Origin: a virus
Taxonomy: Duplodnaviria > Heunggongvirae > Uroviricota > Caudoviricetes
Direction: 5' to 3' (one strand)
DNA: 64,000 nt
Virus record (IMG/VR): IMGVR_UViG_2703718833_000007
Location: 1 to 64,000 of that record
Positions 2,556 through 44,610 of the stretch are shown here, piece by piece (within the stretch, counting starts at the first letter, position 1; each line of letters begins with the position of its first letter). The notes below the pieces were generated by a model. It made no database searches. It saw only the letters and a list, made by a program, of their open reading frames with translations, and was not told where the DNA came from. Position numbers and translations under genes: made by a program.

Positions 2556-3971
2556 TTAAAAAGATGCGTTATTCTGATTGTTTCGTTGGTTAAAACGGCT
2601 TGTGCGATGATTCATTGACTGAATACACGCTGCGGCTGCGCGCGCCTGGTCGCATGGCAAGATATTACCGTTGTCATCAAACCGCTGGTAAACAGTTCCA
2701 GACTTACCATGACGGTTTTTTGACACAATGATTTCCATGTATTCGCGGGCAACAGACTGCTCGTCGTAATACCCATCGCGGTAAACCATGATTATTCTGT
2801 CGGCATCTTGCTCAAGGTTGCCGGAATCACGAAGATCAGAATTATTAGGGCGCTTGTTTGGTCGTTCCTCAACTCGTCGTGATAATTGCGCCAGCGCTAA
2901 CACTGGAACGCGCAATTCTTTCGCCATCATCTTCAACGACCATGACAATTGCCCAACAGCGAGATCATGACGTTCTGCCTTAGCCAGCTTCATCAACCCT
3001 ATGTAGTCAATCATTACCATACCCAGGTTGGGATGTTCCTGTTTCATCCGTTCCGTGGTGGCGCGTATTTCCTCAACCGTTAACTGCGACGCGTCAACGA
3101 TCCACACATCAAGATTAGCAAGTGCGCTCATACCCTGGCCGACATGCGCCCAACCCTCATCATCAAGTTTTACAGGATTGCGCAGGCAGTCAGTTGATAA
3201 ATTACCAGCGCCAGCGATAGCGCGTTCAGTCATCTGATCGAGTGACATTTCAAGCGTGAATAACAAAACGCCAACCCGCTGATCCTTGCTGCCAGGGTAA
3301 GGGCGTTCAGCAGCAGCGCGGGCAATTGCCAGCGCCAACGCAGATTTACCAGACCCAGGGCGTCCGGCGAGAAGCACCAGATCAGTAGCGTTAATGCCGC
3401 CTAACATTTCGTCGAGTGGTTCTATCCCTGTTTTGATGTTGTCAGAATTGACACCGCATTCCATGCGCTTACTTAAAACTTCCGTGTATTCCTGGACAGC
3501 ATCGCGCAACAGAACAGGGATAATCTTGTCTTTCGTTACCTTTAATTTTGAATACCGGGAATCAAAATCTTTCATCGTCTCTTTGACGACCTCAAGCGTC
3601 CCCGTCTCCAGTTTGTAGCGCATATCGTCGATGAGTTCCAACATCTGCCGCCGCTGGTGCTCTTCACGTAGTAGCTGTGCGTATCCCTTCAGGTTGGCAG
3701 CAGACGGGCACGATCTCGCTGTTTGCATTAGCGGTACGAAATTTTCATTACCAATCTCATCACCGACCAGCAATGCATCGATGAGATTCCTGTTTCTGGC
3801 TTGTGCCCGGATAATTTCAAAAGCCCGCTTATACAGCGGAATAGTGAACACTTCAGGATCAAGCGTAGCGAGAACATCTTGCGCGTTAGGGGTTAGGCCA
3901 CCTAACAGCAGCCCGCCGATAACTGACGCCTCACGTTCCTGCCGTAGTGAGTTTATTTGCTCAGTTACCAT
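2556..3971 (-). CDS. DnaB-family replicative DNA helicase
   Basis: 471 aa; Walker A GRPGSGKSALAL and DnaB C-terminal RecA-like domain motifs. Confidence 0.85.
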   Translation of the reverse strand: MVTEQINSLRQEREASVIGGLLLGGLTPNAQDVLATLDPEVFTIPLYKRAFEIIRAQARNRNLIDALLVGDEIGNENFVPLMQTARSCPSAANLKGYAQLLREEHQRRQMLELIDDMRYKLETGTLEVVKETMKDFDSRYSKLKVTKDKIIPVLLRDAVQEYTEVLSKRMECGVNSDNIKTGIEPLDEMLGGINATDLVLLAGRPGSGKSALALAIARAAAERPYPGSKDQRVGVLLFTLEMSLDQMTERAIAGAGNLSTDCLRNPVKLDDEGWAHVGQGMSALANLDVWIVDASQLTVEEIRATTERMKQEHPNLGMVMIDYIGLMKLAKAERHDLAVGQLSWSLKMMAKELRVPVLALAQLSRRVEERPNKRPNNSDLRDSGNLEQDADRIIMVYRDGYYDEQSVAREYMEIIVSKNRHGKSGTVYQRFDDNGNILPCDQARAAAACIQSMNHRTSRFNQRNNQNNASF

Positions 3972-4510
3972 TATGTTATTGCCTCCGGTTTACAAAATGT
4001 ATTTTCATCTGGTGAAGAAATACCGTGGTTATGGTGATAGCCATATTTTATTTCAGCTTCACGCCGCGCCCTTACAGCATCATCATATGATTTCCCCCAG
4101 TACACGCTTATAGTTTTTCTTTTGCCATTTTTACTCCATACTACTATTCTTGATCTCCATACTTTTTTTATTTTATCCCAATAAACGCCAACGCAACCGC
4201 TAGTGTTATCTATTGGCTTCTTTGCGTTTCTTGCATTTTCCCACGCATAAACAAGTCTTAAATTTTCAATTCTATCGTCACCTGGCATGTGATTTATATG
4301 ATCAATCATCATTCCATCAGGGATAGGGCCATTAAACATTTCCCAAACAATTCTATGTCTAAGAAAATATTTTTTATTAATAACTATTTGCCAATAACCT
4401 ATGCTCCCCCTACATCCTGCCACATCACCGGGTTTTATTCTTGTTTTGTATCTGTGTTCTTTCCAGTACAAAACACCATTGCTATAAATAAATAATTTAC
4501 TCCATTCCAT
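3971..4510 (-). CDS. HNH endonuclease with AP2 domain (homing-endonuclease-like), copy 1
   Basis: HNH_3-like DHINH...N motif, AP2-like segment, C-terminal KYGYHHNHG; start taken at internal ATG 4510 to avoid 160-nt overlap. Confidence 0.75.
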   Translation of the reverse strand: MEWSKLFIYSNGVLYWKEHRYKTRIKPGDVAGCRGSIGYWQIVINKKYFLRHRIVWEMFNGPIPDGMMIDHINHMPGDDRIENLRLVYAWENARNAKKPIDNTSGCVGVYWDKIKKVWRSRIVVWSKNGKRKTISVYWGKSYDDAVRARREAEIKYGYHHNHGISSPDENTFCKPEAIT

Positions 4511-5624
4511 AATTAGACATCCCAGGTCTATACACAAAGCGCCCAATCTCGCCATATTCAGGACTGTAAATGATAACAGCAGCGCAACGTTGCGAACGCC
4601 ACCCACCACGGGCCGAATAAGCATCTTTAGCAGCCAATGTTCCGTGATGTTCGACAACGCCTAACGATGTTTCAATAACAGATTGATGGTGTAAATGGCC
4701 TACATGCGCGTAAACATATTTAGATTTACCGAAATCATCCCGCCAGTCAGAAACACAGGCAGCAAGTAAATTTTCTGGCTTTTTGATAGTGTGCCCGTGG
4801 TGGTAAGCAAGGAATGTTTTGCCGTACTGTGTGTGGTGGACGATGGCAGGGGACACGTCAACCTTTACGCGCGGTTCATCTTCGTAAAAAGCCGACAGCG
4901 CAGCACGTAGCCAGATCATTCCTGACTGGTCGTGATTGCCTTCAAGTACCTGTATTTCTACCTCCTTGTGATTCAGCAACATTTTCCCAACAGCACGCCT
5001 TACAGATCTGATAACCACATAAACAAGTTTTGCGTAGCGTGAATCGCAATCCAGGACGTGATTGCTTGATGGCGTAACTGGCAACAGCCCGTCAGAATGC
5101 GCCACATCACCGCCTAACAACAATACAGCTTTTTCAGACATCGGCGCAGCGCCTACCGCGTAGTCAAAGAAGTCATTTAACACGCGCTCAGCGATCCCAG
5201 TGTCGTAGCTCTCGCCGCATTCAGCTTTATGGGCAAGTGCCCCGATATGCAAATCAAATACCGGATAAAGGGCAAGACTTTTTTGAAAATCAATTTCAGG
5301 CACTGGCACGGCCTCCGCGCGTGGTATTTCCTCCGTGAATGCGTCGCGGGCAGCTTCCATTAGCCTTTCCATTTCATCACGGTCACGGGCAGTTTTAATC
5401 CAGCGCATGACCGTATTCCCAGCCTTATCGACAAGAACAGATTCACCAGTAACGCCAAAACCCGGCGCGCGGCGTGTTGATAACAAACCGCGTTTCGCCA
5501 GCTTTGCGCCCAGACGCTCGACGTTGCGTTTTGACATGCCGTATTTTTCAGCGATCTGCTTGTACGTTAAACCGTTGTTATATTCAGCGATCAATTGTTC
5601 ATCGCTGATTTTTCTTTGCGACAT
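4497..5624 (-). CDS. HTH domain fused to calcineurin-like metallophosphoesterase
   Basis: N-terminal HTH (LTYKQIAEKYGMSKRNVERL); phosphoesterase motifs DLHIG, GGDVAHSD, GNHD, GHLHH. Confidence 0.55.
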   Translation of the reverse strand: MSQRKISDEQLIAEYNNGLTYKQIAEKYGMSKRNVERLGAKLAKRGLLSTRRAPGFGVTGESVLVDKAGNTVMRWIKTARDRDEMERLMEAARDAFTEEIPRAEAVPVPEIDFQKSLALYPVFDLHIGALAHKAECGESYDTGIAERVLNDFFDYAVGAAPMSEKAVLLLGGDVAHSDGLLPVTPSSNHVLDCDSRYAKLVYVVIRSVRRAVGKMLLNHKEVEIQVLEGNHDQSGMIWLRAALSAFYEDEPRVKVDVSPAIVHHTQYGKTFLAYHHGHTIKKPENLLAACVSDWRDDFGKSKYVYAHVGHLHHQSVIETSLGVVEHHGTLAAKDAYSARGGWRSQRCAAVIIYSPEYGEIGRFVYRPGMSNYGME

Positions 5625-9090: not shown

Positions 9091-9183
9091 GCCATAAAAA
9101 CACCAAAACGTAAACAGAAAACGTTATTTATTGTTTAAATATCAATGACATATAAAATATTTTAAAAAAGTATACAAAATGGA

Positions 9184-15854: not shown

Positions 15855-16338
15855 CAGGTTATTAGCCTGCGTTTATGTCGCCGTTTTCGTGATCATCAAC
15901 CTTATTGTTAACCATTGCGGCCCGTGGGTAATTCCGATCACCACGGTAGCCGCTGTGTGTGTCAATATGATGATCCGTGACTTCTTGCTGTATGACGGCG
16001 GCTTGAAATGGTCTGCTACAACATGCGCCGCCGCTGGCGCAATCACGGTAATGATAAATTACGATGCTGGAATGGTAGCGATCGCGTCATTCGTTGCGGT
16101 TGTTTCCGGTGCGCTTATATCTGGAGGTGTTTACCGGGTTTTGCCTGGTGATTTCGATTCTAAGCGCTGGCCTGCAAACATAGCTTCAGCCATCGGGGAT
16201 GCGTTAATTTTCCCGACGCTATCGTTTATGGCGTTTATGCCGGAAATATCAGCGATGCAGTTTATCTCAAAAATGGCAGCGGTAACGGTGATCACTATCA
16301 TCATGCGCCGCTATTTCACGTTTGAGGGTAGAAAATGA
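15835..16338 (+). CDS. integral membrane protein, possible YhhQ-like queuosine-precursor transporter family
   Basis: 167 aa, multiple TM helices; segment VYRVLPG..SKRWPANIASAIGDALIF resembles a conserved region of YhhQ-family transporters as recalled; tentative. Confidence 0.3.
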   Translation: MKKVAIDRLLACVYVAVFVIINLIVNHCGPWVIPITTVAAVCVNMMIRDFLLYDGGLKWSATTCAAAGAITVMINYDAGMVAIASFVAVVSGALISGGVYRVLPGDFDSKRWPANIASAIGDALIFPTLSFMAFMPEISAMQFISKMAAVTVITIIMRRYFTFEGRK

Positions 16339-16862
16339 ATTGGGATGATTATTTTATATACAATCCGGACACAGGTAAGTTGTACTGGAAATATAGAAAT
16401 GACATAGAAGAATCAAGGCGTAAACAATGGAATGCGTGTAATGCTGGTCATGAGGTTGGACATATTGGCGGAAGCGGTGGGTGTCTTAATACAGCGCTTA
16501 CCGTTGGCGGAAAGCGTTATAATTTAAAAGTACATAGAATATGTTACGAGATGTACTATGGGCCAATACCTGAAGGTAAGGAGGTTGATCATATAAATCA
16601 CGTTAAAACAGATAATCGAGCCGTCAATCTTGGATTAAAAGACCATAAAGATAATATGCGCAACATGTCTTTAATGGTAAACAATACCAGTGGGTGCGCT
16701 GGTATCCATAAAAATAAACATGGTAAATGGGTTGTTAGAATCGGTGGAGGCAAAAGAGGTAATAGAATTTATATAGGGTGTTTTTCTGATATCAATGACG
16801 CAATAAAAGCTAGGCGCGACGCTGAAAGAAAGTATGGCTATCATGAAAATCACGGCAAATAG
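16335..16862 (+). CDS. HNH endonuclease with AP2 domain, copy 2
   Basis: VDHINH...N HNH_3 motif, AP2-like segment, C-terminal KYGYHENHGK. Confidence 0.8.
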   Translation: MNWDDYFIYNPDTGKLYWKYRNDIEESRRKQWNACNAGHEVGHIGGSGGCLNTALTVGGKRYNLKVHRICYEMYYGPIPEGKEVDHINHVKTDNRAVNLGLKDHKDNMRNMSLMVNNTSGCAGIHKNKHGKWVVRIGGGKRGNRIYIGCFSDINDAIKARRDAERKYGYHENHGK

Positions 16863-17121
16863 AACAACCACGCCACCGCCGCGCGGCTTTGCCCGTGCTG
16901 TATTCCTGGCTAACGACCGGGCCATCAATCGTGCTACGCTCAACCGCGTTTTACCGGACTGAAATTTACAAAATGGCGTCATTGCGTGATGTGGATCACA
17001 TAATGGCGCTTTTCACCTTGTTCTGACGTATCCGTTTTGTATACTTCAAACAAGCAAAATGCTCTTTAAAAATCCGGCAGCGCTGAAATGCGTAGAAATC
17101 ACCTGAAAAGGAGAGAGCATT

Positions 17122-24009: not shown

Positions 24010-24501
24010 ATGATTAGCCAATCGCTGAAAAACCGACTAACTAAGGCGGCGGCTGGTGGAACGTTAGCCATTGCATCTGTTTTGCTTGTATGGGTTGAGG
24101 GTACGGCTTACGAGCCTTATTACGATACCGGAGGCGTGCTAACTGTATGCAATGGCATAACCGGCCATGATGTTGTCCCTGGTAAGAGATATACACCGGA
24201 TGAATGCGAGAGACTTTTGCAAAAGCATTTAACCGTTCACAAAAAGGCGGTTGATCGTTATGTAAAAGTTGACATGAATGATTATCAACGCGCAGCGCTA
24301 ATTAGCTTTTCATACAATATCGGGGTTGACGCTTTCAAAAAATCAACCTTGTTAAAAAAAATAAACAAAGGCGACTTTAAGGGAGCGTGTAAGGAGATGG
24401 ATCGCTGGGTGTATGACAATGGGAGATATATACAAGGCTTAAAGAATCGTCGCGATATTGAACGTGCTATATGTGAATGGGGCGTAACCAATGGAAAGTG
24501 A
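24010..24501 (+). CDS. SAR endolysin (GH24 phage lysozyme with N-terminal signal-anchor-release helix)
   Basis: 163 aa from ATG 24010; weakly hydrophobic Gly/Ala-rich N-terminal helix; lysozyme motifs recalled as similar to phage 21 R. Confidence 0.8.
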   Translation: MISQSLKNRLTKAAAGGTLAIASVLLVWVEGTAYEPYYDTGGVLTVCNGITGHDVVPGKRYTPDECERLLQKHLTVHKKAVDRYVKVDMNDYQRAALISFSYNIGVDAFKKSTLLKKINKGDFKGACKEMDRWVYDNGRYIQGLKNRRDIERAICEWGVTNGK

Positions 24502-25012
24502 TGATGAACTAAAACGAAAGCTACACTACGATCCAGCGACAGGTATTTTCACCTATAAGATTAGTCCTCACGGGAGAATCAAGGCCGGAAGCGTAGCCGG
24601 GTGTAAGCATAAAAGCGGATACATACACATAGGAAGATATAAAGCGCATCGCCTTGCGTGGTTTTTCCATTATGGAGTGTGGCCCGAAAAGGACATTGAC
24701 CATATTAATGGAATAAAAACCGACAACAGGATAGTAAACCTGCGAGAAACAGATGATGCGCATAACTGCAGAAACAAGAAACATATTGCCACTCACACAT
24801 TGTCTGCATTCAGGGGTGTTAGCTACCACAAAACAGAGAGAAGCAAGCCTAAATGGCGAGTAAGAATTACCGACAATGAAGGTAAGCGTATATCTATTGG
24901 TTTATTTGACTCACTAGACGAAGCGATCGCCGCTCGCATTTTGGCGGAAAACTTTTTCTATGGTGAATATGCACCTTCGATGGGTTGCGAGGGTGAAACA
25001 TGGACAAGGTGA
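24491..25012 (+). CDS. HNH endonuclease with AP2 domain, copy 3 (divergent), inserted between endolysin and Rz
   Basis: IDHINGIKTDNRIVNL HNH_3 motif and AP2-like RGV...W segment. Confidence 0.7.
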   Translation: MESDDELKRKLHYDPATGIFTYKISPHGRIKAGSVAGCKHKSGYIHIGRYKAHRLAWFFHYGVWPEKDIDHINGIKTDNRIVNLRETDDAHNCRNKKHIATHTLSAFRGVSYHKTERSKPKWRVRITDNEGKRISIGLFDSLDEAIAARILAENFFYGEYAPSMGCEGETWTR

Positions 25013-30415: not shown

Positions 30416-31301
30416 CACCGAAGACCCGACCATGACAGGGAAGTTAAGGTCTGGTGCTATCAAGCGTTTTAAATCCTGCCTGAAGAAAGTTGCGGATCCG
30501 TATATTGCCATACTGGACAGGATGCAATATAGCCTTGCTGTTAATAAAAAATACACCTTTCAGATCTACATTGACGAATTACATGACTTGCTGGAAGACG
30601 CCAGCGACATGATTGATGAGATATTCGAGTTAACAGACCCGGAAAACTTCTGGTTCTGGCAGGAATACGTGAAAGTGGCATATCAGCGCGGCACTTCCCA
30701 GGAATACGCTAACCTCGCTAACCAGTCAGTCACATATTCCAGGGCTTACCCTGAAGTGTCGGCGGTATTAACCAGTCAGACCTATCGAACGCGCCTTGCT
30801 CTGGTGCGTACCCGCGTATTTGAAGAGATGCGCGGGCTGACAGCACAGATCAAGAAGGATATGGCACGCCGATTAACTGAAGGCATGGCCCGTGGTTTAA
30901 ATCCACTTGAAATAGCGCGCACATTGCAGCAGGAAACGCAATTACCGCTATACCGGTGCAAACGTATTGCCCGCACTGAAATATGCACAGCGTTGCGCAC
31001 AGCGCGTATGGATGAGGCTGAAGCGGCGACGGAAGAGCTTAATCTGCGCACTATGCAGATGCACATTTCGGCATTGTCGCCGACTACCAGGTTGTCACAC
31101 GCACAGCGGCACGGGAAAACTTACACCATAGAAGAGCAGCGCGAATGGTGGAGCAGATCCCCAAATTCAATTAACTGCAAATGTAGCACTATTACCGTGA
31201 TGGTCGATGAATCTGGTAACATATTAAACAAACGAATATTAGAGCGGGCGCAAGAAAATTATAAGGTTGCGCACGCTAAATATGGCGAAGATTGGGAGTG
31301 A
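30405..31301 (+). CDS. head morphogenesis protein (Mu gpF / SPP1 gp7-like)
   Basis: About 298 aa following portal; start ATG 30405 overlaps portal stop. Confidence 0.55.
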   Translation: MPSNTEDPTMTGKLRSGAIKRFKSCLKKVADPYIAILDRMQYSLAVNKKYTFQIYIDELHDLLEDASDMIDEIFELTDPENFWFWQEYVKVAYQRGTSQEYANLANQSVTYSRAYPEVSAVLTSQTYRTRLALVRTRVFEEMRGLTAQIKKDMARRLTEGMARGLNPLEIARTLQQETQLPLYRCKRIARTEICTALRTARMDEAEAATEELNLRTMQMHISALSPTTRLSHAQRHGKTYTIEEQREWWSRSPNSINCKCSTITVMVDESGNILNKRILERAQENYKVAHAKYGEDWE

Positions 31302-31305
31302 TATC

Positions 31306-31797
31306 GTGAATGAAGTGATTAATTGGCATGATTATTTCACGTATAAATCAGGCCATATTTACTGGAAAATATCACCAACTAACGGCGTTCATATTGGCGA
31401 CCATGCGGGGAATGACAGCGGGTTGGGCTACTTGCGTGTTCGTGTCAATTATAGGTTATATCTTGTTAGTAGAATCATATGGGAAATGCACAACGGCCCG
31501 ATCCCGGAAGGGTACGAGATAGACCACATTGACCATAACACACTAAATAACGATATAACGAACCTAAGGATGGTAAGTCATTACGAAAATACACTAAATG
31601 CGCCAATGAGAAAGGATAATAAAAGCGGTTATGTCGGTGTTATTTGGCATAAGGCGTCCCGTAAATGGATGGCGTATGTACAAGTGAATAAGAAGCGCAA
31701 ACATTTAGGTTTATTTGACAGCATAGATAAGGCCGTAGCTGCCCGCCGACAGGCTGAAAAAGAGAACAATTATCACCCAAATCACGGGAGTGTTTAA
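31306..31797 (+). CDS. HNH endonuclease with AP2 domain, copy 4
   Basis: GTG start 31306 with GGAG RBS; IDHIDHN HNH_3 motif; AP2-like segment; C-terminal NYHPNHG. Confidence 0.75.
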   Translation: MNEVINWHDYFTYKSGHIYWKISPTNGVHIGDHAGNDSGLGYLRVRVNYRLYLVSRIIWEMHNGPIPEGYEIDHIDHNTLNNDITNLRMVSHYENTLNAPMRKDNKSGYVGVIWHKASRKWMAYVQVNKKRKHLGLFDSIDKAVAARRQAEKENNYHPNHGSV

Positions 31798-36954: not shown

Positions 36955-37665
36955 TTGGCCCCTTTATTTTTTATGGTGACAGTTATGATCCATGTTCGAA
37001 CAGGACAATTTGCGGTTGTTGTTGATGGCAGGCGTTACGAGTTTAACCCCTGCTTTGCTGCAATGGCTAAAATAGGCAGTGACAGAGAACTGGTCGAATA
37101 CTTCGCAACGGTGCACGGTGGCAAATATCCATCACGATTGCCAACGGATACAGACCTACGCAATCGCATTCTGGCGCGTTGTTATGGTGAACTGGTGCAA
37201 ACGTCCATCCACATACTTAAATGTTGCTCAGAATGCGAAATAGGCCCGTTATTGGGCGAATGTAGCTTTACTCCTTCTGGTAAGTTGAGACTTAAACCTG
37301 GATTGATGCCCACCAGCGACGTTATCACGCTTGCGCAGCACTGCATGTTCCACGGTTTAATTGGTGACGGACCGGAGGAAGACGTTGGCGATGAGCAGGA
37401 AGGCGACTATAAACAGACTTTTGACATCCTTGAATACGTTTACTCTGCCGTTGCTCACCTGGGATTGTCTGAATCTGAAGCATGGGGCATGACAATGACC
37501 GGATACAGGGCCGCTGTACGCGCTAAAACGCCACCAGACGAAAGAAACGAGAAACGTAAGCCAAACGTTCATATAAATAAACGTGATTATGATGAGCAAA
37601 TGGAGGCCGCTAAAAGGGTGCTGGAATTGATGAAAAAACGCGAGCAAGAAAAAGCCCGGAATTAA
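36955..37665 (+). CDS. putative tail assembly chaperone
   Basis: Position between tail tube and tape measure; basic C-terminus; start uncertain. Confidence 0.4.
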   Translation: MAPLFFMVTVMIHVRTGQFAVVVDGRRYEFNPCFAAMAKIGSDRELVEYFATVHGGKYPSRLPTDTDLRNRILARCYGELVQTSIHILKCCSECEIGPLLGECSFTPSGKLRLKPGLMPTSDVITLAQHCMFHGLIGDGPEEDVGDEQEGDYKQTFDILEYVYSAVAHLGLSESEAWGMTMTGYRAAVRAKTPPDERNEKRKPNVHINKRDYDEQMEAAKRVLELMKKREQEKARN

Positions 37666-37679
37666 CCGGGCCTTTATCT

Positions 37680-37982
37680 TTATTTGTATGCTGCAAATCT
37701 GCATCTTGCCTCATCCAGATCGTGAATATCGTACACGTTATCGTAAATGTAAGTTGCAACCTGTGCTTTCTGTACGTCAGTTGCGTTAGGGAACTCCATG
37801 CTTACAAAAGTCACTGCATCAACGTAGTTCTTAAACATTTTTTTGTTAACGCACAGTGCGTAAATCAATACACCAGGCCAGAAAATCAGCGCGCCAATGA
37901 ATGCCATGAGCATATTCAGATGTTTTTTCTGCGCTACAGCCATAGTTACTACGAAGCCGATGAGTGCAATTACCAGTTCCAT
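37680..37982 (-). CDS. reverse-oriented membrane protein (100 aa, two TM helices)
   Basis: Two hydrophobic helices then soluble C-terminal domain; opposite strand inside tail module. Confidence 0.45.
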   Translation of the reverse strand: MELVIALIGFVVTMAVAQKKHLNMLMAFIGALIFWPGVLIYALCVNKKMFKNYVDAVTFVSMEFPNATDVQKAQVATYIYDNVYDIHDLDEARCRFAAYK

Positions 37983-37992
37983 GATACACCTC

Positions 37993-38100
37993 TCATTTAC
38001 GTTTATCTTCGGTTGTCATTGCCAGCACTAGCACAGCCATCACATTAAATGCTAACCATTCTGTAATATATACATCTATAACCGTTTTGATTGCGTCCAT
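37993..38100 (-). CDS. reverse-oriented small TM peptide (35 aa)
   Basis: MDAIKTVIDVYITEWLAFNVMAVLVLAMTTEDKRK; below track cutoff. Confidence 0.3.
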   Translation of the reverse strand: MDAIKTVIDVYITEWLAFNVMAVLVLAMTTEDKRK

Positions 38101-38113
38101 TTACCCGCCCCGC

Positions 38114-38200
38114 TTATTTCTTGTTTTTAAGTGCTTTCAGCATTTCTTCGATAAAGTCGGCATAGTGCTCATGCTCGTTGGGTCGGTAGTAGTTTTTCAT
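38114..38200 (-). CDS. reverse-oriented small peptide (28 aa)
   Basis: MKNYYRPNEHEHYADFIEEMLKALKNKK; AAGAGGA RBS 7 nt upstream. Confidence 0.25.
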   Translation of the reverse strand: MKNYYRPNEHEHYADFIEEMLKALKNKK

Positions 38201-38276
38201 TTTCTTATCCTCTTTTGCTTCCTCCGGTTAATCCGGCCTTCTAAATCCCTTTACTCTATCCCTTTCCTTTAGCCTC

Positions 38277-38320
38277 TTTATACAAAATGTATTCGTTGAA
38301 GTGAAGCCATTTTGTATAAA
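38277..38320. promoter_or_regulatory. 13-bp perfect inverted repeat (operator-like) between reverse mini-operon and tape measure gene
   Basis: TTTATACAAAATG at 38277-38289 and CATTTTGTATAAA at 38308-38320, 18-bp spacer. Confidence 0.45.
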
Positions 38321-38357
38321 ATAGAGATCAGGATCACACTTTTTACGAGGTTAAATC

Positions 38358-40703
38358 ATGGCTACCAGTTTAGGTACAATTTATTACGAAGTTGATGCAA
38401 AAACTGGTCAACTTCTAGTCGCTCAGAGACAGGCTGATCAGGCTTTTGACAGTATAGAGCGCGGCGCAAAACGTGCCGACCGCCAGGTGAACACGCTTAA
38501 GACTTCAATCAAAGCACTATCCAGGGTCATCCATCTGTTACTTGCTGCGGAGGCTGTGCGCCAGTTTATTGACATGGCGGAGCAAGCAAAAATGCTTCGT
38601 GTCAAAATTAAAATGCTCACAGGTGACGCAGAGGCTGCAGGACGTGTTTTTGACGGCCTGAAAAAAATATCAAAGGAAACCGGGCAAAGCCTTAAAGACA
38701 CTGGCGAATTGTGGCAGGGCCTGGCTATTTCACTAAAGAACACTTCCGCTACGGAAGGCCAATTGCTCAACCTGGTTGGCACTATTCAGAAGATGGGTGC
38801 GTTAGGAGGCGCGTCAGCGGAACAGATGTCTAATTCTATGCGCCAGTTCCGCCAGTCTATAGACGGCGGCGTGCTGCGTGCTGAAGAGTTTAACAGCCTG
38901 TTAGAGAACACGCCGACCATCGTACAGACAATGGCCCGCCATATGGGGTTGTCAATGGGCCAGTTCCGCGCCGAAATGCTGGACGGCAAGATCACGGCTG
39001 AAAGGATGGTTAACGCGATTCAGGCAGCTACACAGGAAACAAACGAGAAGTTTGCACAGTTGCCGCGCACGTCCGGCAAGGCTATCAATGAGCTTAAAGT
39101 TGAGGTGATGGGACTTGTCGAACAGTTAGACGATCTTTTCGGCATATCAGATGGCGTTGTGTCGGCAATAGACTTAATCACTGGTGGCGTTGAGGGATTA
39201 GGTAAAGGCGCAAAATTCGCCGCAACATGTTTCAATACACTAAAAACGGCTGGCAGTGAGTTCATAGACATGTTTGACGACGTGGCTGTTAAGGCTGGCG
39301 AGGTGGCGGAAGAAATCATTAGAATGGTAACGCCAATCAAGGCGCTAATGGATGGCTACAAATGGATGAAGGAGATTGTAGGAAAGCAAACAGAAGAATA
39401 TAACACCAATTATGAGAAGAAATACGGTAAAAGACTTGGTAAGGGAATGCAATTTTGGGATGATTGGCAGGCCGTACTTAACCAAACAAAAGAAAACAAA
39501 GGAACCGACACCGCTAACGACGGCAAGATCACCGGATTCGAGCCGCCAGTAGATAAGCCAGGAAAACCGAAAAAAGGCAAAAAAGACAAGAAATCTGAAG
39601 CTGATCGGCTTGGTGATGAAGGTGTAAGTGTCTCCGACCAGTACAACAAAGACGCCGCCGCTATGCGTAAAGCACTGGAGAACGGCAAGGCCATTGACGC
39701 TGCGTTTGCTCAGGGCAAAATAACCCTCCTTGAGTACAAGGCAGCGCAAAAGGGGATAGGCAAGGAACTGAAGGACGAATTGGCACAAATCCCGGTAGAA
39801 GAATTGCAGGACAAATGGGCGCACATAGTAAGCCCGATGGATCAGCTTAAGGGCGAAATTGACCCAATCAAACAGGCGCAGAATGAATGGGCAGTAAGAA
39901 AGCAAATGTTATTAGACCTGGGCGCTACAGAGGCGCAACAGAGACAGGCGCAGTTAGAATATGAACAACAGATCCGCGATCTGAAGTGGGAGCAGTGGCA
40001 GGCGCAAAGCGACACAAACAGCCTGATCGGTGCTTGTGTTAGCGGCCTCAAAGGTGGCATGGGTAATGCTCTTACCGGCCTGCTAAACGGCACTCAATCA
40101 TTAAGCGAGGTTTTCGCCAACCTGGGAAGCAGCATACTTAACACCGTTGGCAACAAACTCTCAGAAATAGCCGCTAACTGGATAGCAGATCAGTTAATGA
40201 TGGAAACGCAAAGCAAGGCTACCCAGGCAAGCACTGCGGCTGGCGCTGTGGCTGCCCAGGGTGAGATCGCGGCAGCGGCGGCCCCGGCAGCGGCGGCTAC
40301 GGCTGCATCAACTGGCGGTAGTTGGGCTATGGCTGGTGCTGCGGCGCTTTCTGCGATCATGTCGCTGGCAACGTCAATTTTTGGCGGCGGGCGTTATAAT
40401 GGTGGTTCTGTGAATGGTGGTAGTCTGTATCGCGTAGGGGAACACGGAATACCTGAGCTATTCCAGACGAGCAACGGGCGTCAGTATATGATCCCTGGGG
40501 AAAATGGCAGGGTTATTCCTGGCCGCGATCTTTTCAGTGGTGGCGGCATTAATATGCCTGTTAACATCACTGTTCAGACCACAAACGGGTTTAGCGACGA
40601 GGACAGTCGCAGACTTGAGCAGACAATGGAACGTGTAGCGATGAAAATGATGGCAAGGGAATCGCAACGACCGGGCGGAATGTTGCAACCTCGCCGCAAA
40701 TAA
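38358..40703 (+). CDS. tail tape measure protein
   Basis: 781 aa; coiled-coil-rich with Gly-rich C-terminal region; position. Confidence 0.85.
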   Translation: MATSLGTIYYEVDAKTGQLLVAQRQADQAFDSIERGAKRADRQVNTLKTSIKALSRVIHLLLAAEAVRQFIDMAEQAKMLRVKIKMLTGDAEAAGRVFDGLKKISKETGQSLKDTGELWQGLAISLKNTSATEGQLLNLVGTIQKMGALGGASAEQMSNSMRQFRQSIDGGVLRAEEFNSLLENTPTIVQTMARHMGLSMGQFRAEMLDGKITAERMVNAIQAATQETNEKFAQLPRTSGKAINELKVEVMGLVEQLDDLFGISDGVVSAIDLITGGVEGLGKGAKFAATCFNTLKTAGSEFIDMFDDVAVKAGEVAEEIIRMVTPIKALMDGYKWMKEIVGKQTEEYNTNYEKKYGKRLGKGMQFWDDWQAVLNQTKENKGTDTANDGKITGFEPPVDKPGKPKKGKKDKKSEADRLGDEGVSVSDQYNKDAAAMRKALENGKAIDAAFAQGKITLLEYKAAQKGIGKELKDELAQIPVEELQDKWAHIVSPMDQLKGEIDPIKQAQNEWAVRKQMLLDLGATEAQQRQAQLEYEQQIRDLKWEQWQAQSDTNSLIGACVSGLKGGMGNALTGLLNGTQSLSEVFANLGSSILNTVGNKLSEIAANWIADQLMMETQSKATQASTAAGAVAAQGEIAAAAAPAAAATAASTGGSWAMAGAAALSAIMSLATSIFGGGRYNGGSVNGGSLYRVGEHGIPELFQTSNGRQYMIPGENGRVIPGRDLFSGGGINMPVNITVQTTNGFSDEDSRRLEQTMERVAMKMMARESQRPGGMLQPRRK

Positions 40704-40709
40704 ACAAAA

Positions 40710-40736
40710 CCCCGGTACAATGCCGGGGCTATTTTT
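40710..40736. terminator. bidirectional rho-independent terminator
   Basis: CCCCGG-TACAATG-CCGGGG hairpin flanked by A-run and T-run. Confidence 0.55.
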
Positions 40737-40929
40737 AGTTGTTCTCAAAACTTGTATATCCTCTTTCAATTTTTCCACCGTGTACGCTTCTGGCAAATAC
40801 CGCGTCAGTATACCTGAAAAATGGGCATGTATATGTATCCCCTTTACTATCCATATATTTTAGCACCCATGCTATGCGTTTTACGTTGCTTTTATTTGCC
40901 GGATTTTTCATTTTATTTTTCCTCCGCAA
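40735..40929 (-). CDS. hypothetical protein, last gene of reverse cassette
   Basis: 64-aa track ORF; two further micro-ORFs possible between it and HNH gene, including 41013-41162. Confidence 0.3.
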   Translation of the reverse strand: MRRKNKMKNPANKSNVKRIAWVLKYMDSKGDTYTCPFFRYTDAVFARSVHGGKIERGYTSFENN

Positions 40930-41174
40930 ATCACAATCTTCCGTTTCTTGCTATATAGCTGCGAGCAAACATCACCTGCCAGATGTTCCAAATCTCACGC
41001 CACGTAAATTCATCATCTTCCATATCTCACACCATCGCGCTTGTATGGTTCGCCATCAGCAAACGGGATTAACTCATCGTTTGCCACCATTCGATTAAAC
41101 CAGTCTTTCAGAACAACCAGGGAGAACCGGATCCCGTAACTGTGCAATTCGCGCCACCTCATTTATGTGCCACC

Positions 41175-41681
41175 CTATTTACCGTGATTTGGATGAAAAC
41201 CGTATTTAATTTCGGATTCTTGCCTTGCCTTGATTGCATCATCTTTGCTTTTGAATACCCCTAAATGTTTTAATTTTCCGTTGATTCTGATAACTGCGCA
41301 CCATTTACGCAATCTTTCAAGCCAATAAACACCAGCACAGCCGGATTTATTATTATGGTTGCGACTTCTGTTGTGGTTATTGTCTTGGCAGGTAACTAGC
41401 CGCAAATTTTCTATATGGTTGTTTACCTTATTGTGATCGATATGATCTATTTCCATTCCTTCCGGGATTGGTCCGTTGTGCATTTCCCATATAATTCTAT
41501 GCTCTTGGTATATCCTCCTGTTAAACCCTACATGTATATACCCACTTCGTTTATGAAGGCACCCGGCTCGCTTTCCCGCATATCTTGAATTCCAGGTTTT
41601 GGAAACGCCATTTCTTGGCTTCCATAATATAGCGCCGTCACTGTATATAAAATAATCATTCCAGTTAATTACTTGTGACAT
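41175..41681 (-). CDS. HNH endonuclease with AP2 domain, copy 5
   Basis: IDHIDHN HNH_3 motif, AP2-like segment, C-terminal KYGFHPNHGK. Confidence 0.8.
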   Translation of the reverse strand: MSQVINWNDYFIYSDGAILWKPRNGVSKTWNSRYAGKRAGCLHKRSGYIHVGFNRRIYQEHRIIWEMHNGPIPEGMEIDHIDHNKVNNHIENLRLVTCQDNNHNRSRNHNNKSGCAGVYWLERLRKWCAVIRINGKLKHLGVFKSKDDAIKARQESEIKYGFHPNHGK

Positions 41682-41923
41682 CCGCGCACCCCTGACAATT
41701 CATTAAATTTGTGATGCTCGACGATTACCCATGCTTTCAAGTCCTGGCTATAAACACGCCAATCTAAATTGGCGCGGAAGGCGTAGCCGTAGCCGTCCTT
41801 TAATTTTTTGGGTGCAACATCCTTGTTTAAAAACGCGTTCAGAAGTGCTTTTGCTTTTTTGATTACGTGTCCAGGTGCGTTTTTCTGTGCTTTAAGATTT
41901 TTGTCAATCATTACCAATTTCAT
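41669..41923 (-). CDS. RelE/ParE-superfamily-like small protein (putative toxin)
   Basis: 84 aa; pattern LKDGYGYAFRANLDWRVYSQ...WVIVEHHK resembles RelE/YoeB-type fold; tentative. Confidence 0.35.
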   Translation of the reverse strand: MKLVMIDKNLKAQKNAPGHVIKKAKALLNAFLNKDVAPKKLKDGYGYAFRANLDWRVYSQDLKAWVIVEHHKFNELSGVRGCHK

Positions 41924-41943
41924 AACTCACCCCACGCAATCCA

Positions 41944-42150
41944 TTAGTTGACCACTTTCAGGAAGAAATCACGGTATTCATCTTCTTTTGCGTTCATCAT
42001 GAATTGACCGTATTTGAATGCGTCATCAAAGCCTTTTACAATCGCCACTTCCACCTGTTCGAATGCTTTGTTTAGCATTACCACTACATAGCGTTTCATG
42101 ATGCCCCCCCTTTGTTGGTACTTCTTTCTCTTCTTGCTTTCTATATACAT
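41944..42150 (-). CDS. small hypothetical protein upstream of RelE-like gene
   Basis: 68-aa track ORF; internal Met gives 51 aa; first gene of reverse cassette. Confidence 0.35.
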   Translation of the reverse strand: MYIESKKRKKYQQRGGIMKRYVVVMLNKAFEQVEVAIVKGFDDAFKYGQFMMNAKEDEYRDFFLKVVN

Positions 42151-42269
42151 CTTGTTATGTCCTGTGTGAAGCCATTTTGTAAACTGGGTATAATTCTTGT
42201 GACGAAGTTCTCATTTTTCGCGTAGAAGCGCGTAAAGATGTATGCAATATGTAACTTATAGGGGGAATC

Positions 42270-42623
42270 ATGCCGGAAGTTTTCAGATGGACGCCACAAA
42301 GAAGCTACAGCGTGACCAGGGAACCAAATGTGTCGGTCGTTAAACTTGGTGATGGTTATGAACAGCGCCAGGCGAAAGGGATTAACACGTTGCTTGATAG
42401 CTACACCCTGGTTTTTAAAGGCAGTAGCGCAGGATGCGGTGATGGTGGGAACGTGGCGATCCAGGCAGAAGCATTCTTGAGGGCGCGCGGCGCTGTCGAG
42501 GCTTTTTACTGGTCGCCGTCTATGGATGGCGTGCAAAGGCTTTTTGTTTGCCGTAGCTGGAGTATGACAAAAGACGGGCCTGTATACACGCTAAACGCAA
42601 CATTTGAGCAAGTTGTCAGCTAG
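42270..42623 (+). CDS. minor tail protein M (lambda gpM-like)
   Basis: 117 aa; recalled similarity and position before L/K/I/J. Confidence 0.75.
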   Translation: MPEVFRWTPQRSYSVTREPNVSVVKLGDGYEQRQAKGINTLLDSYTLVFKGSSAGCGDGGNVAIQAEAFLRARGAVEAFYWSPSMDGVQRLFVCRSWSMTKDGPVYTLNATFEQVVS

Positions 42624-42820
42624 TGGGGGTTAATATGTACGGGACTTGTGTAGTTGACAAAACTGACGCATTTACATTATTTGACGACTATGAGATCAAC
42701 GACCTTACTGTAAAGGCTGACAATGGCGATACATGGTATCTTCATGATGTTGGTGACGGGTATGTGGGGTGCAGATCCAGAGAAGGCAAGGAGGTTTTAT
42801 TTTTGGTTGATGGCGTATAA
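42623..42820 (+). CDS. hypothetical protein (65 aa)
   Basis: Coupled to M (ATGA-type overlap). Confidence 0.4.
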   Translation: MGVNMYGTCVVDKTDAFTLFDDYEINDLTVKADNGDTWYLHDVGDGYVGCRSREGKEVLFLVDGV

Positions 42821-42826
42821 TAACAA

Positions 42827-42850
42827 CCCCGCTTCGCGCGGGGTTTTCTT
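42827..42850. terminator. rho-independent terminator
   Basis: CCCCGC-TTCGC-GCGGGG hairpin plus TTTT. Confidence 0.5.
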
Positions 42851-42851
42851 G

Positions 42852-42989
42852 TCAGTAGTGAATGTACATCAAACTCATTGGGTGAGCGTGCGCCATATTA
42901 TTGGCTATCGCCGCCCAGTCCCAATCGGCAGCATGAACGCCAAATACTATCAGTCCCATTATTATTAGCGCCAAAACTTCTATTTTCAT
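42852..42989 (-). CDS. reverse-oriented small membrane peptide (45 aa)
   Basis: MKIEVLALIIMGLIVFGVHAADWDWAAIANNMAHAHPMSLMYIHY; AGGTGA RBS 6 nt upstream. Confidence 0.3.
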   Translation of the reverse strand: MKIEVLALIIMGLIVFGVHAADWDWAAIANNMAHAHPMSLMYIHY

Positions 42990-42999
42990 AATCTGTCAC

Positions 43000-43248
43000 C
43001 TATAAGTTATCACGCAGGTAATTAACGCCCTTATCAGTGACGAATGAATGGTTGACCTGGTTTTCATCCGTCATAATGATGAATAACTTTTCTTGTAGGT
43101 ACTTAGCTTTCGGGTACAGCGTTAAACAGACCTGGTACAGTATCCCGCGCTCAATCAGCAAATCAATAAATTCGTGCTCATGATAACCGATGATGCGAGC
43201 GGCCTGTTTCAACGTGTACACATAATCGCCGTGATTGCGCCGCGCCAT
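43000..43248 (-). CDS. hypothetical protein (82 aa), reverse cassette
   Basis: Operon-context ORF on opposite strand within tail module. Confidence 0.4.
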   Translation of the reverse strand: MARRNHGDYVYTLKQAARIIGYHEHEFIDLLIERGILYQVCLTLYPKAKYLQEKLFIIMTDENQVNHSFVTDKGVNYLRDNL

Positions 43249-43257
43249 ATTGCCGCC

Positions 43258-43608
43258 TTATTTATCGAACGCAGACAAATTATCGATACAGAAATCTTTT
43301 GCCGCTTTTTCGTATTCGCGTTTTGCTTCTGGAACGTCAACCGGAAAACCTTTTGCGTGTATTTCACCAGGGCAAGACTGATCCATAGAATCCGCAAAAT
43401 TAACATTGAAGCTAACATCAATATCTTTAGGGTTCATCTCTTCCACCATATCAGGTACTTGGACCGGAGTAATATCAAAATCACGAGCGTTAGACCAACA
43501 GCGAAGTAATTCGCGACCTTCATCACGCGCCGCAGCATATGTGTCAAATAGGCCCATGCGTTCCCATTCACATTTATCAGTCCAAATTTCTAAACTATAT
43601 TTTTGCAT
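43258..43608 (-). CDS. hypothetical protein (116 aa), reverse cassette
   Basis: Operon-context ORF. Confidence 0.4.
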   Translation of the reverse strand: MQKYSLEIWTDKCEWERMGLFDTYAAARDEGRELLRCWSNARDFDITPVQVPDMVEEMNPKDIDVSFNVNFADSMDQSCPGEIHAKGFPVDVPEAKREYEKAAKDFCIDNLSAFDK

Positions 43609-43621
43609 TTTTGTTAACCTC

Positions 43622-43795
43622 TCATTTGACAGGTTCTATCCTGTACCCCAAAACGCGGTCATCCTCAGCAAGTAAAAGCGCGTCAGTAAGTGCCTCGCCT
43701 TCATCCTTATACAGAGCTACAGTCATTTCCCTGCCATCCGCTAGGAATACCTTCAATCTCCACACCTTATCAACCATCTCACACCTCCGCGCCAT
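43622..43795 (-). CDS. hypothetical protein (57 aa), first gene of reverse cassette
   Basis: Start at ATG 43795 with AGGG RBS; track gives longer 43852 start that would include the palindrome. Confidence 0.35.
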   Translation of the reverse strand: MARRCEMVDKVWRLKVFLADGREMTVALYKDEGEALTDALLLAEDDRVLGYRIEPVK

Positions 43796-43820
43796 TTTGT
43801 TAACCCTGCTTTCTTTTGAG

Positions 43821-43838
43821 TACAATATACATATTGTA
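43821..43838. promoter_or_regulatory. operator-like palindrome upstream of reverse cassette
   Basis: TACAATAT-AC-ATATTGTA, 8-bp inverted arms. Confidence 0.4.
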
Positions 43839-43905
43839 AAAAGCGCTATCAACCGTTTTGGTATGATTTAGCGTGACGGCGATCACAAAATGACAAGGTG
43901 ATAAA

Positions 43906-44610
43906 ATGCGCAGCATACCTACAGAAATGATTATTGATTCCGTGGATTCCGGAGTCGGCGCGGTAATTGACTTGTTTGAATTGGACCTCACGCCCCTGGG
44001 TGGCGAGGTTATCCGCTTCCATTCCGGCGCGAATGGCTATTACGGCCCGGTTATCTGGAAGGGAGTGGCTTACAACAGCTACCCAATCGAGGTAACTGGC
44101 TTCGAAATGAAAAACGAAGGCGTTTACTCACGCCCACAAATGGTAGTAGCTAACATTGGCGGGCTAATCACTGGGATGAATAACGATTTTAACGACCTTC
44201 GAGGAATGAAGGTTACGCGCCGCCAGGTGGAAGTAAAATACCTTGACGCTATCAACTTCCCCAACGGCAACCCAGATGCAGATCCATCTATTGAGGCTGT
44301 ATCTTTTTACGTCGTTGAGGCGATGAGCGAAGAAACAGCCGACCAGGTGCAATATGAACTATCAACGCCAATTGATGCTGATAAAGCTGTTATCCCTGGG
44401 CGCACAATTCTCGCTGACGTTTGCCAATGGCAGTATCGCGGAGACGGTTGCGGATATAGTGGCGGCCCTGTAGCTACTGATAAAGACGAATCGACCAGCG
44501 ATCCAAAGATGGACAAATGCAGCCACCGCCTAAGCGGTTGCCGTTTGCGTTTCCCGCGCCCGAATCCGTTACCAATTTCATGTTTCCCTGGATCGAGCAA
44601 GGTGGGTTGA
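43906..44610 (+). CDS. minor tail protein L (lambda gpL-like)
   Basis: 234 aa; recalled lambda L similarity including C-terminal Cys cluster. Confidence 0.8.
   Translation: MRSIPTEMIIDSVDSGVGAVIDLFELDLTPLGGEVIRFHSGANGYYGPVIWKGVAYNSYPIEVTGFEMKNEGVYSRPQMVVANIGGLITGMNNDFNDLRGMKVTRRQVEVKYLDAINFPNGNPDADPSIEAVSFYVVEAMSEETADQVQYELSTPIDADKAVIPGRTILADVCQWQYRGDGCGYSGGPVATDKDESTSDPKMDKCSHRLSGCRLRFPRPNPLPISCFPGSSKVG

Follow-up and report, generated by a model that had tools for sequence, protein, structure and literature searches.

An antisense cassette built around a RelE/ParE-fold gene in the tail operon of an mEp021-group coliphage, a probable moron with a separate HNH passenger

We analysed 64,000 nucleotides (nt) of DNA from a virus of the Caudoviricetes (positions 1 to 64,000 of the IMG/VR record IMGVR_UViG_2703718833_000007; this whole stretch is called the window below) and examined a set of genes lying antisense between the tape-measure gene and tail gene M. 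Six open reading frames (ORFs) were found on the minus strand of this interval. Read leftward from M, they are orf51, a gene for an 84-amino-acid (aa) ParE-like protein, a gene for a free-standing HNH homing endonuclease, and the tiny genes orf49, orf30 and orf58, the last of which is followed by a bidirectional intrinsic terminator directly after the tape-measure stop (40703) (Table 1). An initial annotation, made from the sequence alone, had proposed these six ORFs, the terminator and a repeated 16-mer upstream, and all of them proved to be present in, or close to, the places it gave. It had further proposed that orf51 and the 84-aa gene form a candidate toxin-antitoxin module that may ride with the HNH gene. 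Comparison with related loci led us to a reading that we hold to be probable, if far from certain: the cassette is an antisense moron running from promoter to terminator, the element that it always carries is an effector with a RelE/ParE fold, able to do without orf51, and the HNH gene is a separate, later passenger.

The closest relative of the region was Escherichia phage mEp515 (96.5% identity over 84% of the query, with the same order of genes), and further relatives were mEp554, mEp044, mEp010, mEp013, mEp021 and MagusPhagus. Those other than MagusPhagus belong to the mEpimmI group, in whose description the cassette genes are not discussed (PMC11893012). An mEp021-type prophage region was present in about 35 of 5426 complete E. 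coli genomes. We scored every gene of the cassette in about 50 related loci taken from six phage records, IMG/VR contigs and E. coli chromosomes, and found that the interval from the tape-measure gene to M held the ParE-like gene throughout. Among otherwise collinear relatives the cassette ranged from two to six genes, the smallest version consisting of orf51 and the ParE-like gene alone (L023-L030, L032 and L033). In the related-locus searches this phage group was the sole place where the pair was met, always between its tape-measure gene and M, and a scan of genome contigs, with one genome per species, found no relative. The ParE-like alleles ranged down to about 60% identity and were mosaic in their C-terminal half. 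The ratio of non-synonymous to synonymous polymorphism (pN/pS), computed per gene over 7-37 distinct alleles from related genomes, was 0.07 for orf51, 0.19 for the ParE-like gene, 0.16 for orf49, 0.13 for orf30 and 0.18 for orf58, with 0.12 for tail gene M. This purifying selection on all five small ORFs indicates that they are real genes and not chance ORFs, including orf49, orf30 and orf58, where two or three micro-ORFs had been called at the outset. Two features expected of a moron, a terminator of its own and a content that varies among relatives, were found here; a third, a working promoter of its own that is used in the prophage, is predicted from a weak match.

Table 1. Features of the reverse cassette and its surroundings, in window coordinates
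Feature	Position	Strand	Description
Tape-measure gene	38358-40703	+	Left flank of the cassette
Bidirectional intrinsic terminator	40708-40730	both	8-bp stem (6 G-C pairs) with T-runs; scores in both directions
orf58	40735-40911	-	58 aa from ATG 40911, basic, function unknown, 26 related loci
orf30	40931-41023	-	30 aa, Trp-rich micro-gene, function unknown, 33 related loci
orf49	41013-41162	-	49 aa, variably present, 9 loci, pN/pS 0.16
Relic of former ParE-like 3' end, 16 nt	41159-41174	-	GGTGGCACATAAATGA, between HNH stop and orf49 start; from allele alignment
Free-standing HNH homing endonuclease gene	41175-41681	-	168 aa, I-HmuI type, ATG within ParE-like codons 81-82
ParE-like / RelE-fold gene	41669-41923	-	84 aa, isoelectric point (pI) 10.0, constant element of the cassette
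orf51	41944-42099	-	51 aa; longest ORF 41944-42150, 68 aa from first ATG
Predicted leftward sigma-70-type promoter	42142-42181	-	TTCACA (42170-42165), 17-nt spacer, TATATA (42147-42142)
16-mer GTGAAGCCATTTTGTA	38301-38316 and 42166-42181		Two exact copies
18-nt inverted repeat	38277-38294 / 38303-38320		TTTATACAAAATGTATTC / GAAGCCATTTTGTATAAA, 89% complementary, 8 nt apart
Perfect TATAAT	42189-42194	+	76 nt before M, present in at least 98% of the 45 leaders, weak -35 (GTGAAG)
Tail gene M	42270-42623	+	Right flank of the cassette

The signals at the two ends of the cassette were then compared among relatives. The terminator is common to the tape-measure gene on the plus strand and the reverse cassette on the minus strand; it scored in both directions, as the initial annotation had held, and is annotated at the same place in mEp515, mEp554 and mEp044. 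At the other end lies a highly conserved 170-nt leader, of which we collected 45 distinct versions. The 16-mer in this leader, also kept in relatives, does recur exactly upstream of the first reverse cassette, as had been pointed out, and when up to two mismatches were allowed the window held four sites (the two exact ones and near-matches at 9173 and 16967), compared with a mean of 0.06 in shuffled sequences, with none of 100 shuffles reaching four. In a predicted leftward promoter, the 16-mer takes in the -35 hexamer together with the preceding 11 nt, and transcription of the cassette would start at this sigma-70-like TTCACA-17-TATATA. The TTCAC and TGTATA cores occurred in at least 98% of the leader versions, the stretch between them being the most variable. 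At the first reverse cassette the two elements stand in register in the same way (TTCACT-17-TATAAA, 38305-38277), and the third has a stronger match (TTGATA-17-TATATT, 43852-43824). Because the layout is the same at the first and second cassettes, the 16-mer repeat is best read as a promoter module common to the reverse cassettes. A role for the 16-mer in a plus-strand promoter was also considered; this fitted the copy before M, where TATAAT is correctly spaced, but not the one before the tape-measure gene; the leftward promoter was therefore preferred.

The arrangement recalls the morons of lambdoid phages, which are reportedly promoter-gene-terminator insertions in late operons, for example in the tail region of HK97 and lambda. 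As in those, small accessory genes lie between tail genes together with a promoter-like sequence and a terminator of their own, and their content varies. Unlike them, the cassette is antisense to the late operon and is one of three reverse cassettes with a common TGTATA -10 core, and its cargo is a toxin-fold protein where lambdoid morons carry a membrane or exclusion protein. It may be described as a mosaic moron with its own promoter and terminator, set antisense in the tail operon of a temperate coliphage of the mEp021 group (mEpimmI). One RelE/ParE-fold gene stands behind a conserved leader that diverges from M, preceded in most relatives by orf51 and followed by the variable tiny genes orf49, orf30 and orf58 and the bidirectional terminator.

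The 84-aa protein, in which the initial annotation had seen a RelE/ParE-like sequence pattern, matched Pfam PF24732 (ParE_like) with 31.5 bits, the cut-off being 24.4. This family is carried by all homologues, and a match was also obtained to PHROG 1525, whose function is unknown. No match was found in NCBIfam, in PADLOC (toxin-antitoxin and defence models) or, directly, among the sequences of the Protein Data Bank (PDB), and a literature search found no mention of PF24732. The detectable family is small, with 12 proteins at E up to 1e-3 in an exhaustive hidden Markov model search of 1.84 billion representatives. An AlphaFold2 (AF2) model built from 15 sequences had a predicted local distance difference test score (pLDDT) of 88 and the topology b-b-a-b-b-b-a. 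When it was compared with the PDB using Foldseek, the top match was S. aureus YoeB (probability 0.92, template-modelling (TM) score 0.47, E 0.09), with YafQ, ParE2 and HigB in the next ranks; RNase-type toxins thus scored at least as high as true ParE. The best structural matches in BFVD, with TM scores of 0.70-0.83, came from two large virulent phages, fHe-Yen9-04 and RaK2, where the proteins are labelled 'ParE-like toxin domain'. The protein is small and basic, has a helix on an antiparallel sheet and can be superposed on solved toxins, as members of the RelE/ParE superfamily do. We consider the fold assignment sound and of moderate strength, and the pattern seen at the outset was borne out by the family match above cut-off, the AF2 model and the top rank of YoeB.

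Of the known systems, YefM-YoeB and the other ribosome-dependent mRNA interferases (RelBE, HigBA and DinJ-YafQ) offer the closest comparison for this protein. YoeB likewise has 84 aa, and both proteins are basic, with a helix packed on a three-stranded antiparallel sheet. The catalytic residues are E46, R65, H83 and Y84 in YoeB and K52, K54, R61, R81 and Y87 in RelE. A PDB profile search and hhalign both aligned the invariant R56 of the ParE-like family with the catalytic Arg65 of YoeB, numbered after the E. coli sequence; K40 was also invariant and H70 mostly conserved in the family alignment. The hhalign values (E = 0.015 for YoeB, 0.098 for RelE and 0.46 for RK2 ParE) are weak, come from approximate query sequences and serve for the alignment register only, and RK2 ParE gave no profile alignment. 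There are differences from the YoeB type as well: the structural E values of 0.09-0.3 are not significant and the TM scores lie below 0.5, the N-terminus is a beta-hairpin and one helix and not two helices, and Glu46, His83 and Tyr84 of YoeB have no equivalents. The ParE-like protein, which is very basic, may act on a nucleic-acid machine of the host. Cleavage of ribosome-bound mRNA in the manner of YoeB and RelE would be the likeliest mode, and inhibition of gyrase in the manner of ParE appears less likely.

We next consider the partner question. The initial annotation had given orf51 a length of 51-68 aa. A gene is indeed present, and its 51-aa start is taken to be the real one because a ribosome-binding site (GGGGGGG) lies 5 nt upstream of ATG 42099 and because the 17-codon extension contains non-triplet indels in relatives; the ATG of the 68-aa version, which was not supported, falls within the spacer of the predicted promoter. 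orf51 ends 20 nt before the ParE-like ATG, and the two genes have a common leader and terminator and a ribosome-binding site each. Its product belongs to PHROG 29810 (E = 6e-36, function unknown) and gave no match in Pfam, NCBIfam, PADLOC or the PDB sequences, and no antitoxin family of the RHH, Phd/YefM, HTH, AbrB, ParD or PaaA2 kind was recognised in it. An AF2 model of it, a single long helix with a predicted TM score of 0.37 on which the individual models disagreed, was unreliable and was not used for a fold search.

These data bear on whether the pair is a genuine type II toxin-antitoxin system, with orf51 as a PaaA2-like antitoxin without a DNA-binding domain and the pair stabilising the prophage or aborting superinfection. 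We consider this unlikely, although several features speak for it: the two genes are bicistronic in antitoxin-first order with separate ribosome-binding sites, the toxin fold is supported, the pair alone makes up the minimal cassette, the charges are complementary (pI 6.1 for orf51 and 10.0 for the ParE-like protein), and RefSeq often names the 84-aa homologues in E. coli genomes 'ParE family toxin-like protein'. However, the ParE-like gene was intact and orf51 absent in two related loci (L047, 53 kb, and L051, 57 kb) and in the complete chromosome of E. coli UMNK88, where the same leader and ribosome-binding site run straight into the 84-aa gene. orf51 DNA was present in 34 complete E. coli genomes, and UMNK88 was not one of them, which leaves it without a second copy. 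Strain MFDS1019527 has an intact ParE-like gene behind an orf51 that is frameshifted by the loss of 1 nt at codon 5. Loss was also seen in the other direction, with orf51 kept where the ParE-like gene was frameshifted (L056) or annotated as a 54-aa fragment and apparently broken (Ecol_244). Losses that run both ways point to the decay of accessory genes, since a lethal toxin with its antidote would give a bias. Nor did the two proteins covary (Pearson r = 0.115 for 465 allele pairs from 31 distinct combinations); orf51 was 80-100% identical across loci, and identical orf51 proteins were paired with three types of ParE-like allele. The missing matches of orf51 and the lack of any PADLOC or NCBIfam toxin-antitoxin model for the ParE-like protein also count against a toxin-antitoxin system, as do distant members of the family that stand alone in virulent phages.

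The cassette was also compared with characterised toxin-antitoxin systems. PaaR2-PaaA2-ParE2 is reportedly prophage-borne in E. coli O157:H7 (structures 5CZF and 5CW7); the cassette differs in having no PaaR2-type regulator gene, no match to Pfam ParE_toxin and a partner that is not required for carriage. In contrast to YefM-YoeB, the upstream gene is neither Phd/YefM-like nor RelB-like and is dispensable. The two genes are adjacent, as the initial annotation had it, but its proposal of a toxin-antitoxin module is weakened by the lone intact ParE-like genes, the lack of covariation and the lack of an antitoxin family; one of the findings named at the outset as telling against it, small genes absent or disrupted in otherwise identical cassettes, was made in part, namely for orf51. 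From the alleles compared, orf51 appears to be a usual but dispensable partner of the ParE-like gene.

Several observations nevertheless weigh against an effector that is independent of orf51 and against a moron with its own promoter. The ParE-like gene was directly downstream in 43 of 43 loci with orf51, which was never found alone, and purifying selection is stronger on orf51 than on any other gene of the cassette; with the 20-nt spacing, this co-occurrence and constraint would look like those of a dedicated partner or antitoxin. The four genomes without a functional orf51 could have attenuated ParE-like alleles or a silent promoter, and one of these four cases could be a sequencing error. 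The ParE-like protein gave no match to the canonical Pfam ParE_toxin (PF05016) or RelE models, the catalytic sets of YoeB and RelE beyond one Arg are without conserved counterpart in its family, and the mechanism suggested for it derives from fold and context. Finally, the leftward promoter is a weak, 9-of-12-type match to the consensus that the scanning tool did not report.

We still favour the antisense moron with an orf51-independent effector. The ParE-like protein would then be a mild or conditional effector directed at the host or at competing phages, with which a lysogen can survive in the absence of orf51, and orf51 would be a lineage-specific modulator or partner, not an obligate antitoxin. 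Where a small gene precedes a RelE/ParE-fold gene, the two are routinely annotated as a toxin-antitoxin pair; because the 'toxin' occurs alone in viable lysogens and as single genes in virulent phages, this label should not be assumed for PF24732. If the effector does work independently of an antitoxin, the common RelE/ParE fold would have a wider role in phages.

The wider family was examined for its genomic context. Distant PF24732 members are single genes within runs of small same-strand genes. In T7-like early regions the gene either immediately precedes the phage RNA polymerase gene or has a gp0.4 homologue close by, on contig L008 it is part of an array of small same-strand genes, and in the virulent coliphage Sortsne it adjoins the lysis genes; a member was also found on a 101-kb phage contig, and RaK2 and fHe-Yen9-04 are further examples of a single gene. 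Bacterial members include one in an AlpA/ParB-type island of Enterobacter and one adjoining a BrxR-type regulator. None of the neighbours examined in phages and bacteria had a known antitoxin domain, and the family as a whole appears from these neighbourhoods to be without toxin-antitoxin architecture. We propose tentatively, and with clearly less confidence than we have in the reading of this cassette, that PF24732 is a phage-specific branch of the RelE/ParE fold without a dedicated antitoxin, serving as an effector in both virulent and temperate phages, with orf51 as a lineage-specific modulator and with a conserved 3' end as the homing site of an HNH endonuclease that would repair the gene it enters. 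Such a branch would be used in host takeover or in competition between phages; its virulent users would be T7-like phages (in their early regions), Sortsne, RaK2 and fHe-Yen9-04, and its temperate users the mEp021-type phages.

The ParE-like gene on L008 (Logan SRR25667327) was the closest outgroup, at 47% identity. About 2.5 kb upstream on the same strand, this contig also has homologues of orf30 (55%) and orf58 (49%), but no orf51; the coordinates of these genes are 175-512 and 2838-3104. Tiny genes of the orf30 and orf58 type seem to belong to a common pool of phage accessory genes.

In another reading, the protein has lost its toxin activity and is a RelE/ParE-fold binder or decoy, for instance against a host toxin-antitoxin or defence component, or a regulator, and orf51 is an unrelated accessory gene transcribed with it. 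Many members of the family come from virulent phages, in which the early genes include clusters of anti-defence genes, and the BrxR-type regulator next to one relative is of the defence-island kind; tolerance of the protein alone in lysogens and the lack of conservation of the RelE/YoeB catalytic residues other than one Arg would also agree with it. Yet the conserved K40, R56 and, mostly, H70 together with the strong positive charge fit an active protein directed at nucleic acid, and the absent catalytic residues prove little because ParE-type toxins need none. We give a non-toxic protein only a slim chance.

The identity and distribution of the HNH gene were also examined. The protein matched Pfam HNH_3 (71.6 bits), PHROG 99 (E = 3e-61) and the homing-endonuclease models of PADLOC, and it aligned with I-HmuI (1U3E) at E = 4.6e-4 with the DH..N..N motif in register. 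The initial annotation had called it an HNH-AP2 endonuclease; the HNH homing type was upheld, and AP2 is only weakly supported: it was the one Pfam match for residues 111-168, with E = 0.11 and a score of 13.2 bits where the cut-off is 33.3. The HNH family occurred in 2852 phage records, usually in several copies per genome. In the cassette it was found at three of about 50 loci, namely the window, mEp515 (99% identical) and the E21845/O/A prophage, whose HNH gene is only 51% identical yet has exactly the same site and junctions. The site was uninterrupted in mEp554, L020, L034, L042 and L046. HNH-less alleles with orf49 read ..GTGAAAGGGGCACATAAATGAGGTGG.., the ParE-like stop overlapping the orf49 start in an ATGA (the junction in mEp554 is GTGAAAGGGGCACATAAATGAGGTGGCGCG), and HNH-plus alleles read ..GTGCGCGGATGTCACAAGTAA-[HNH]-TAGGGTGGCACATAAATGAGGTGG.. 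instead. The HNH ATG overlaps the ParE-like stop region by 13 nt, and the insert re-encodes the last ParE-like residues (C-H-K-stop). The 16 nt left between the HNH stop and the orf49 start compare with ..GGGGCACATAAATGA, which is G-A-H-K-stop in mEp554. Since HNH-plus loci keep this relic of the uninterrupted ParE-like 3' end, the HNH gene came after the cassette. It entered the last ParE-like codons, supplies a replacement C-H-K-stop overlapping its own ATG and left the 16-nt relic before orf49, a pattern typical of free-standing homing endonuclease genes; by this comparison of alleles it is an independent, later selfish invader of the ParE-like 3' end. A co-conversion tract beside the insertion was also looked for, but the gene differed from the HNH-less allele by about 15% along its whole length, without a clear spike, and this idea was dropped.

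The suggestion that the pair rides with the HNH gene was not upheld. In its strongest form, the pair and the HNH gene would be one mobile unit, with the endonuclease spreading the pair or the pair stabilising the endonuclease. Through the 13-nt overlap the HNH and ParE-like genes are linked in translation in this genome, and a diverged HNH gene stands at the same site in E21845/O/A. But about 47 of 50 loci keep the pair without the HNH gene, and in the alignment with related prophages HNH presence and absence was separate from the pair; the relic places the arrival of the HNH gene later, the same HNH family occupies four other sites in the window and the M leader of another locus, and the pair itself was met only at its one position in this phage group. 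We regard a single mobile unit as very improbable.

Like other free-standing HNH homing endonuclease genes (I-HmuI, and the HNH_3/AP2 genes of T1-, T5- and T7-like phages), with which it has the HNH_3 motif in common, the gene is wedged in with overlapping start and stop codons, shows presence/absence polymorphism at a fixed site and has several paralogues in the genome. It differs from the I-HmuI type in that it lies in an antisense accessory cassette of a temperate phage, not in a conserved essential gene, and in that the final three codons of the invaded gene are encoded anew by the insert. The insertion offers a clean case, open to testing, in which a homing endonuclease gene re-encodes the terminal codons of the gene that it has entered, although neither this case nor an antitoxin-independent phage effector would surprise specialists.

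Four further HNH_3 paralogues were found in the window, at about 4022-4513 (-, in a gene at 3971-4657), 16335-16862 (+), 24491-25012 (+) and 31267-31797 (+), and identity among the five paralogues of the phage genome of about 54 kb is 42-50%. All five are squeezed in between adjacent genes, in several cases with start or stop codons that overlap, and one has head-morphogenesis genes on both sides. In L039 (IMGVR_UViG_2695420423_000006), a 50%-identical HNH gene (2185-2664) lies in the leader between M and orf51, which it has lengthened from about 172 to 661 nt, and not at the ParE-like 3' end. The cassette thus has a second HNH target, independent of the first.

As for the small downstream genes, orf30 was absent from the minimal two-gene cassettes (L023-L033). 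orf58 has a GGAGG site 9 nt upstream of its ATG, its reading frame extends to a TTG (40735-40929, 64 aa), and it gave no significant family match in Pfam or PHROG.

Other elements were noted in the leaders. The 18-nt inverted repeat covers the -35 and -10 of the predicted promoter of the first cassette and includes the 16-mer. On its sequence, this repeat at 38277-38320 looks like an operator, of which the second cassette retains only one good arm. The TATAAT upstream of M is a possible divergent promoter for M that would restart rightward M-L-K-I-J transcription after the reverse cassette. The 10-mer TACAAAATGG, with up to one mismatch, occurred at 24 sites in the window compared with 7.2 expected from shuffles, including 9173-9182, 16967-16976, 38307-38316 and 42172-42181. 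It is not claimed as an operator, as it holds an ATG in a typical start context, and its enrichment may reflect a preferred translation-start context. An Rfam search of 37400-44200 returned nothing, that is, no known small RNA or RNA antitoxin.

Three reverse mini-cassettes, all on the minus strand, interrupt the tail operon (37680-38200, 40735-42150 and 43000-43852), and the -10 core TGTATA(T/A)(A/T) is common to the predicted leftward sigma-70-like promoters of all three. The third encodes an 82-aa KilAC antirepressor-like protein (43000-43248; Pfam ANT, E = 4e-7). A 100-aa ORF shortly before the tape-measure gene but on the opposite strand (37680-37982, minus strand) has two hydrophobic segments and no significant Pfam match; by position and type it is comparable to membrane morons, of which HK97 gp15 is an example. 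The first reverse cassette is preceded by a 236-aa ORF (36955-37665, plus strand) that belongs to the uncharacterised family DUF6246 (E = 7e-56) and that, by its position, would be a tail-assembly chaperone-like gene.

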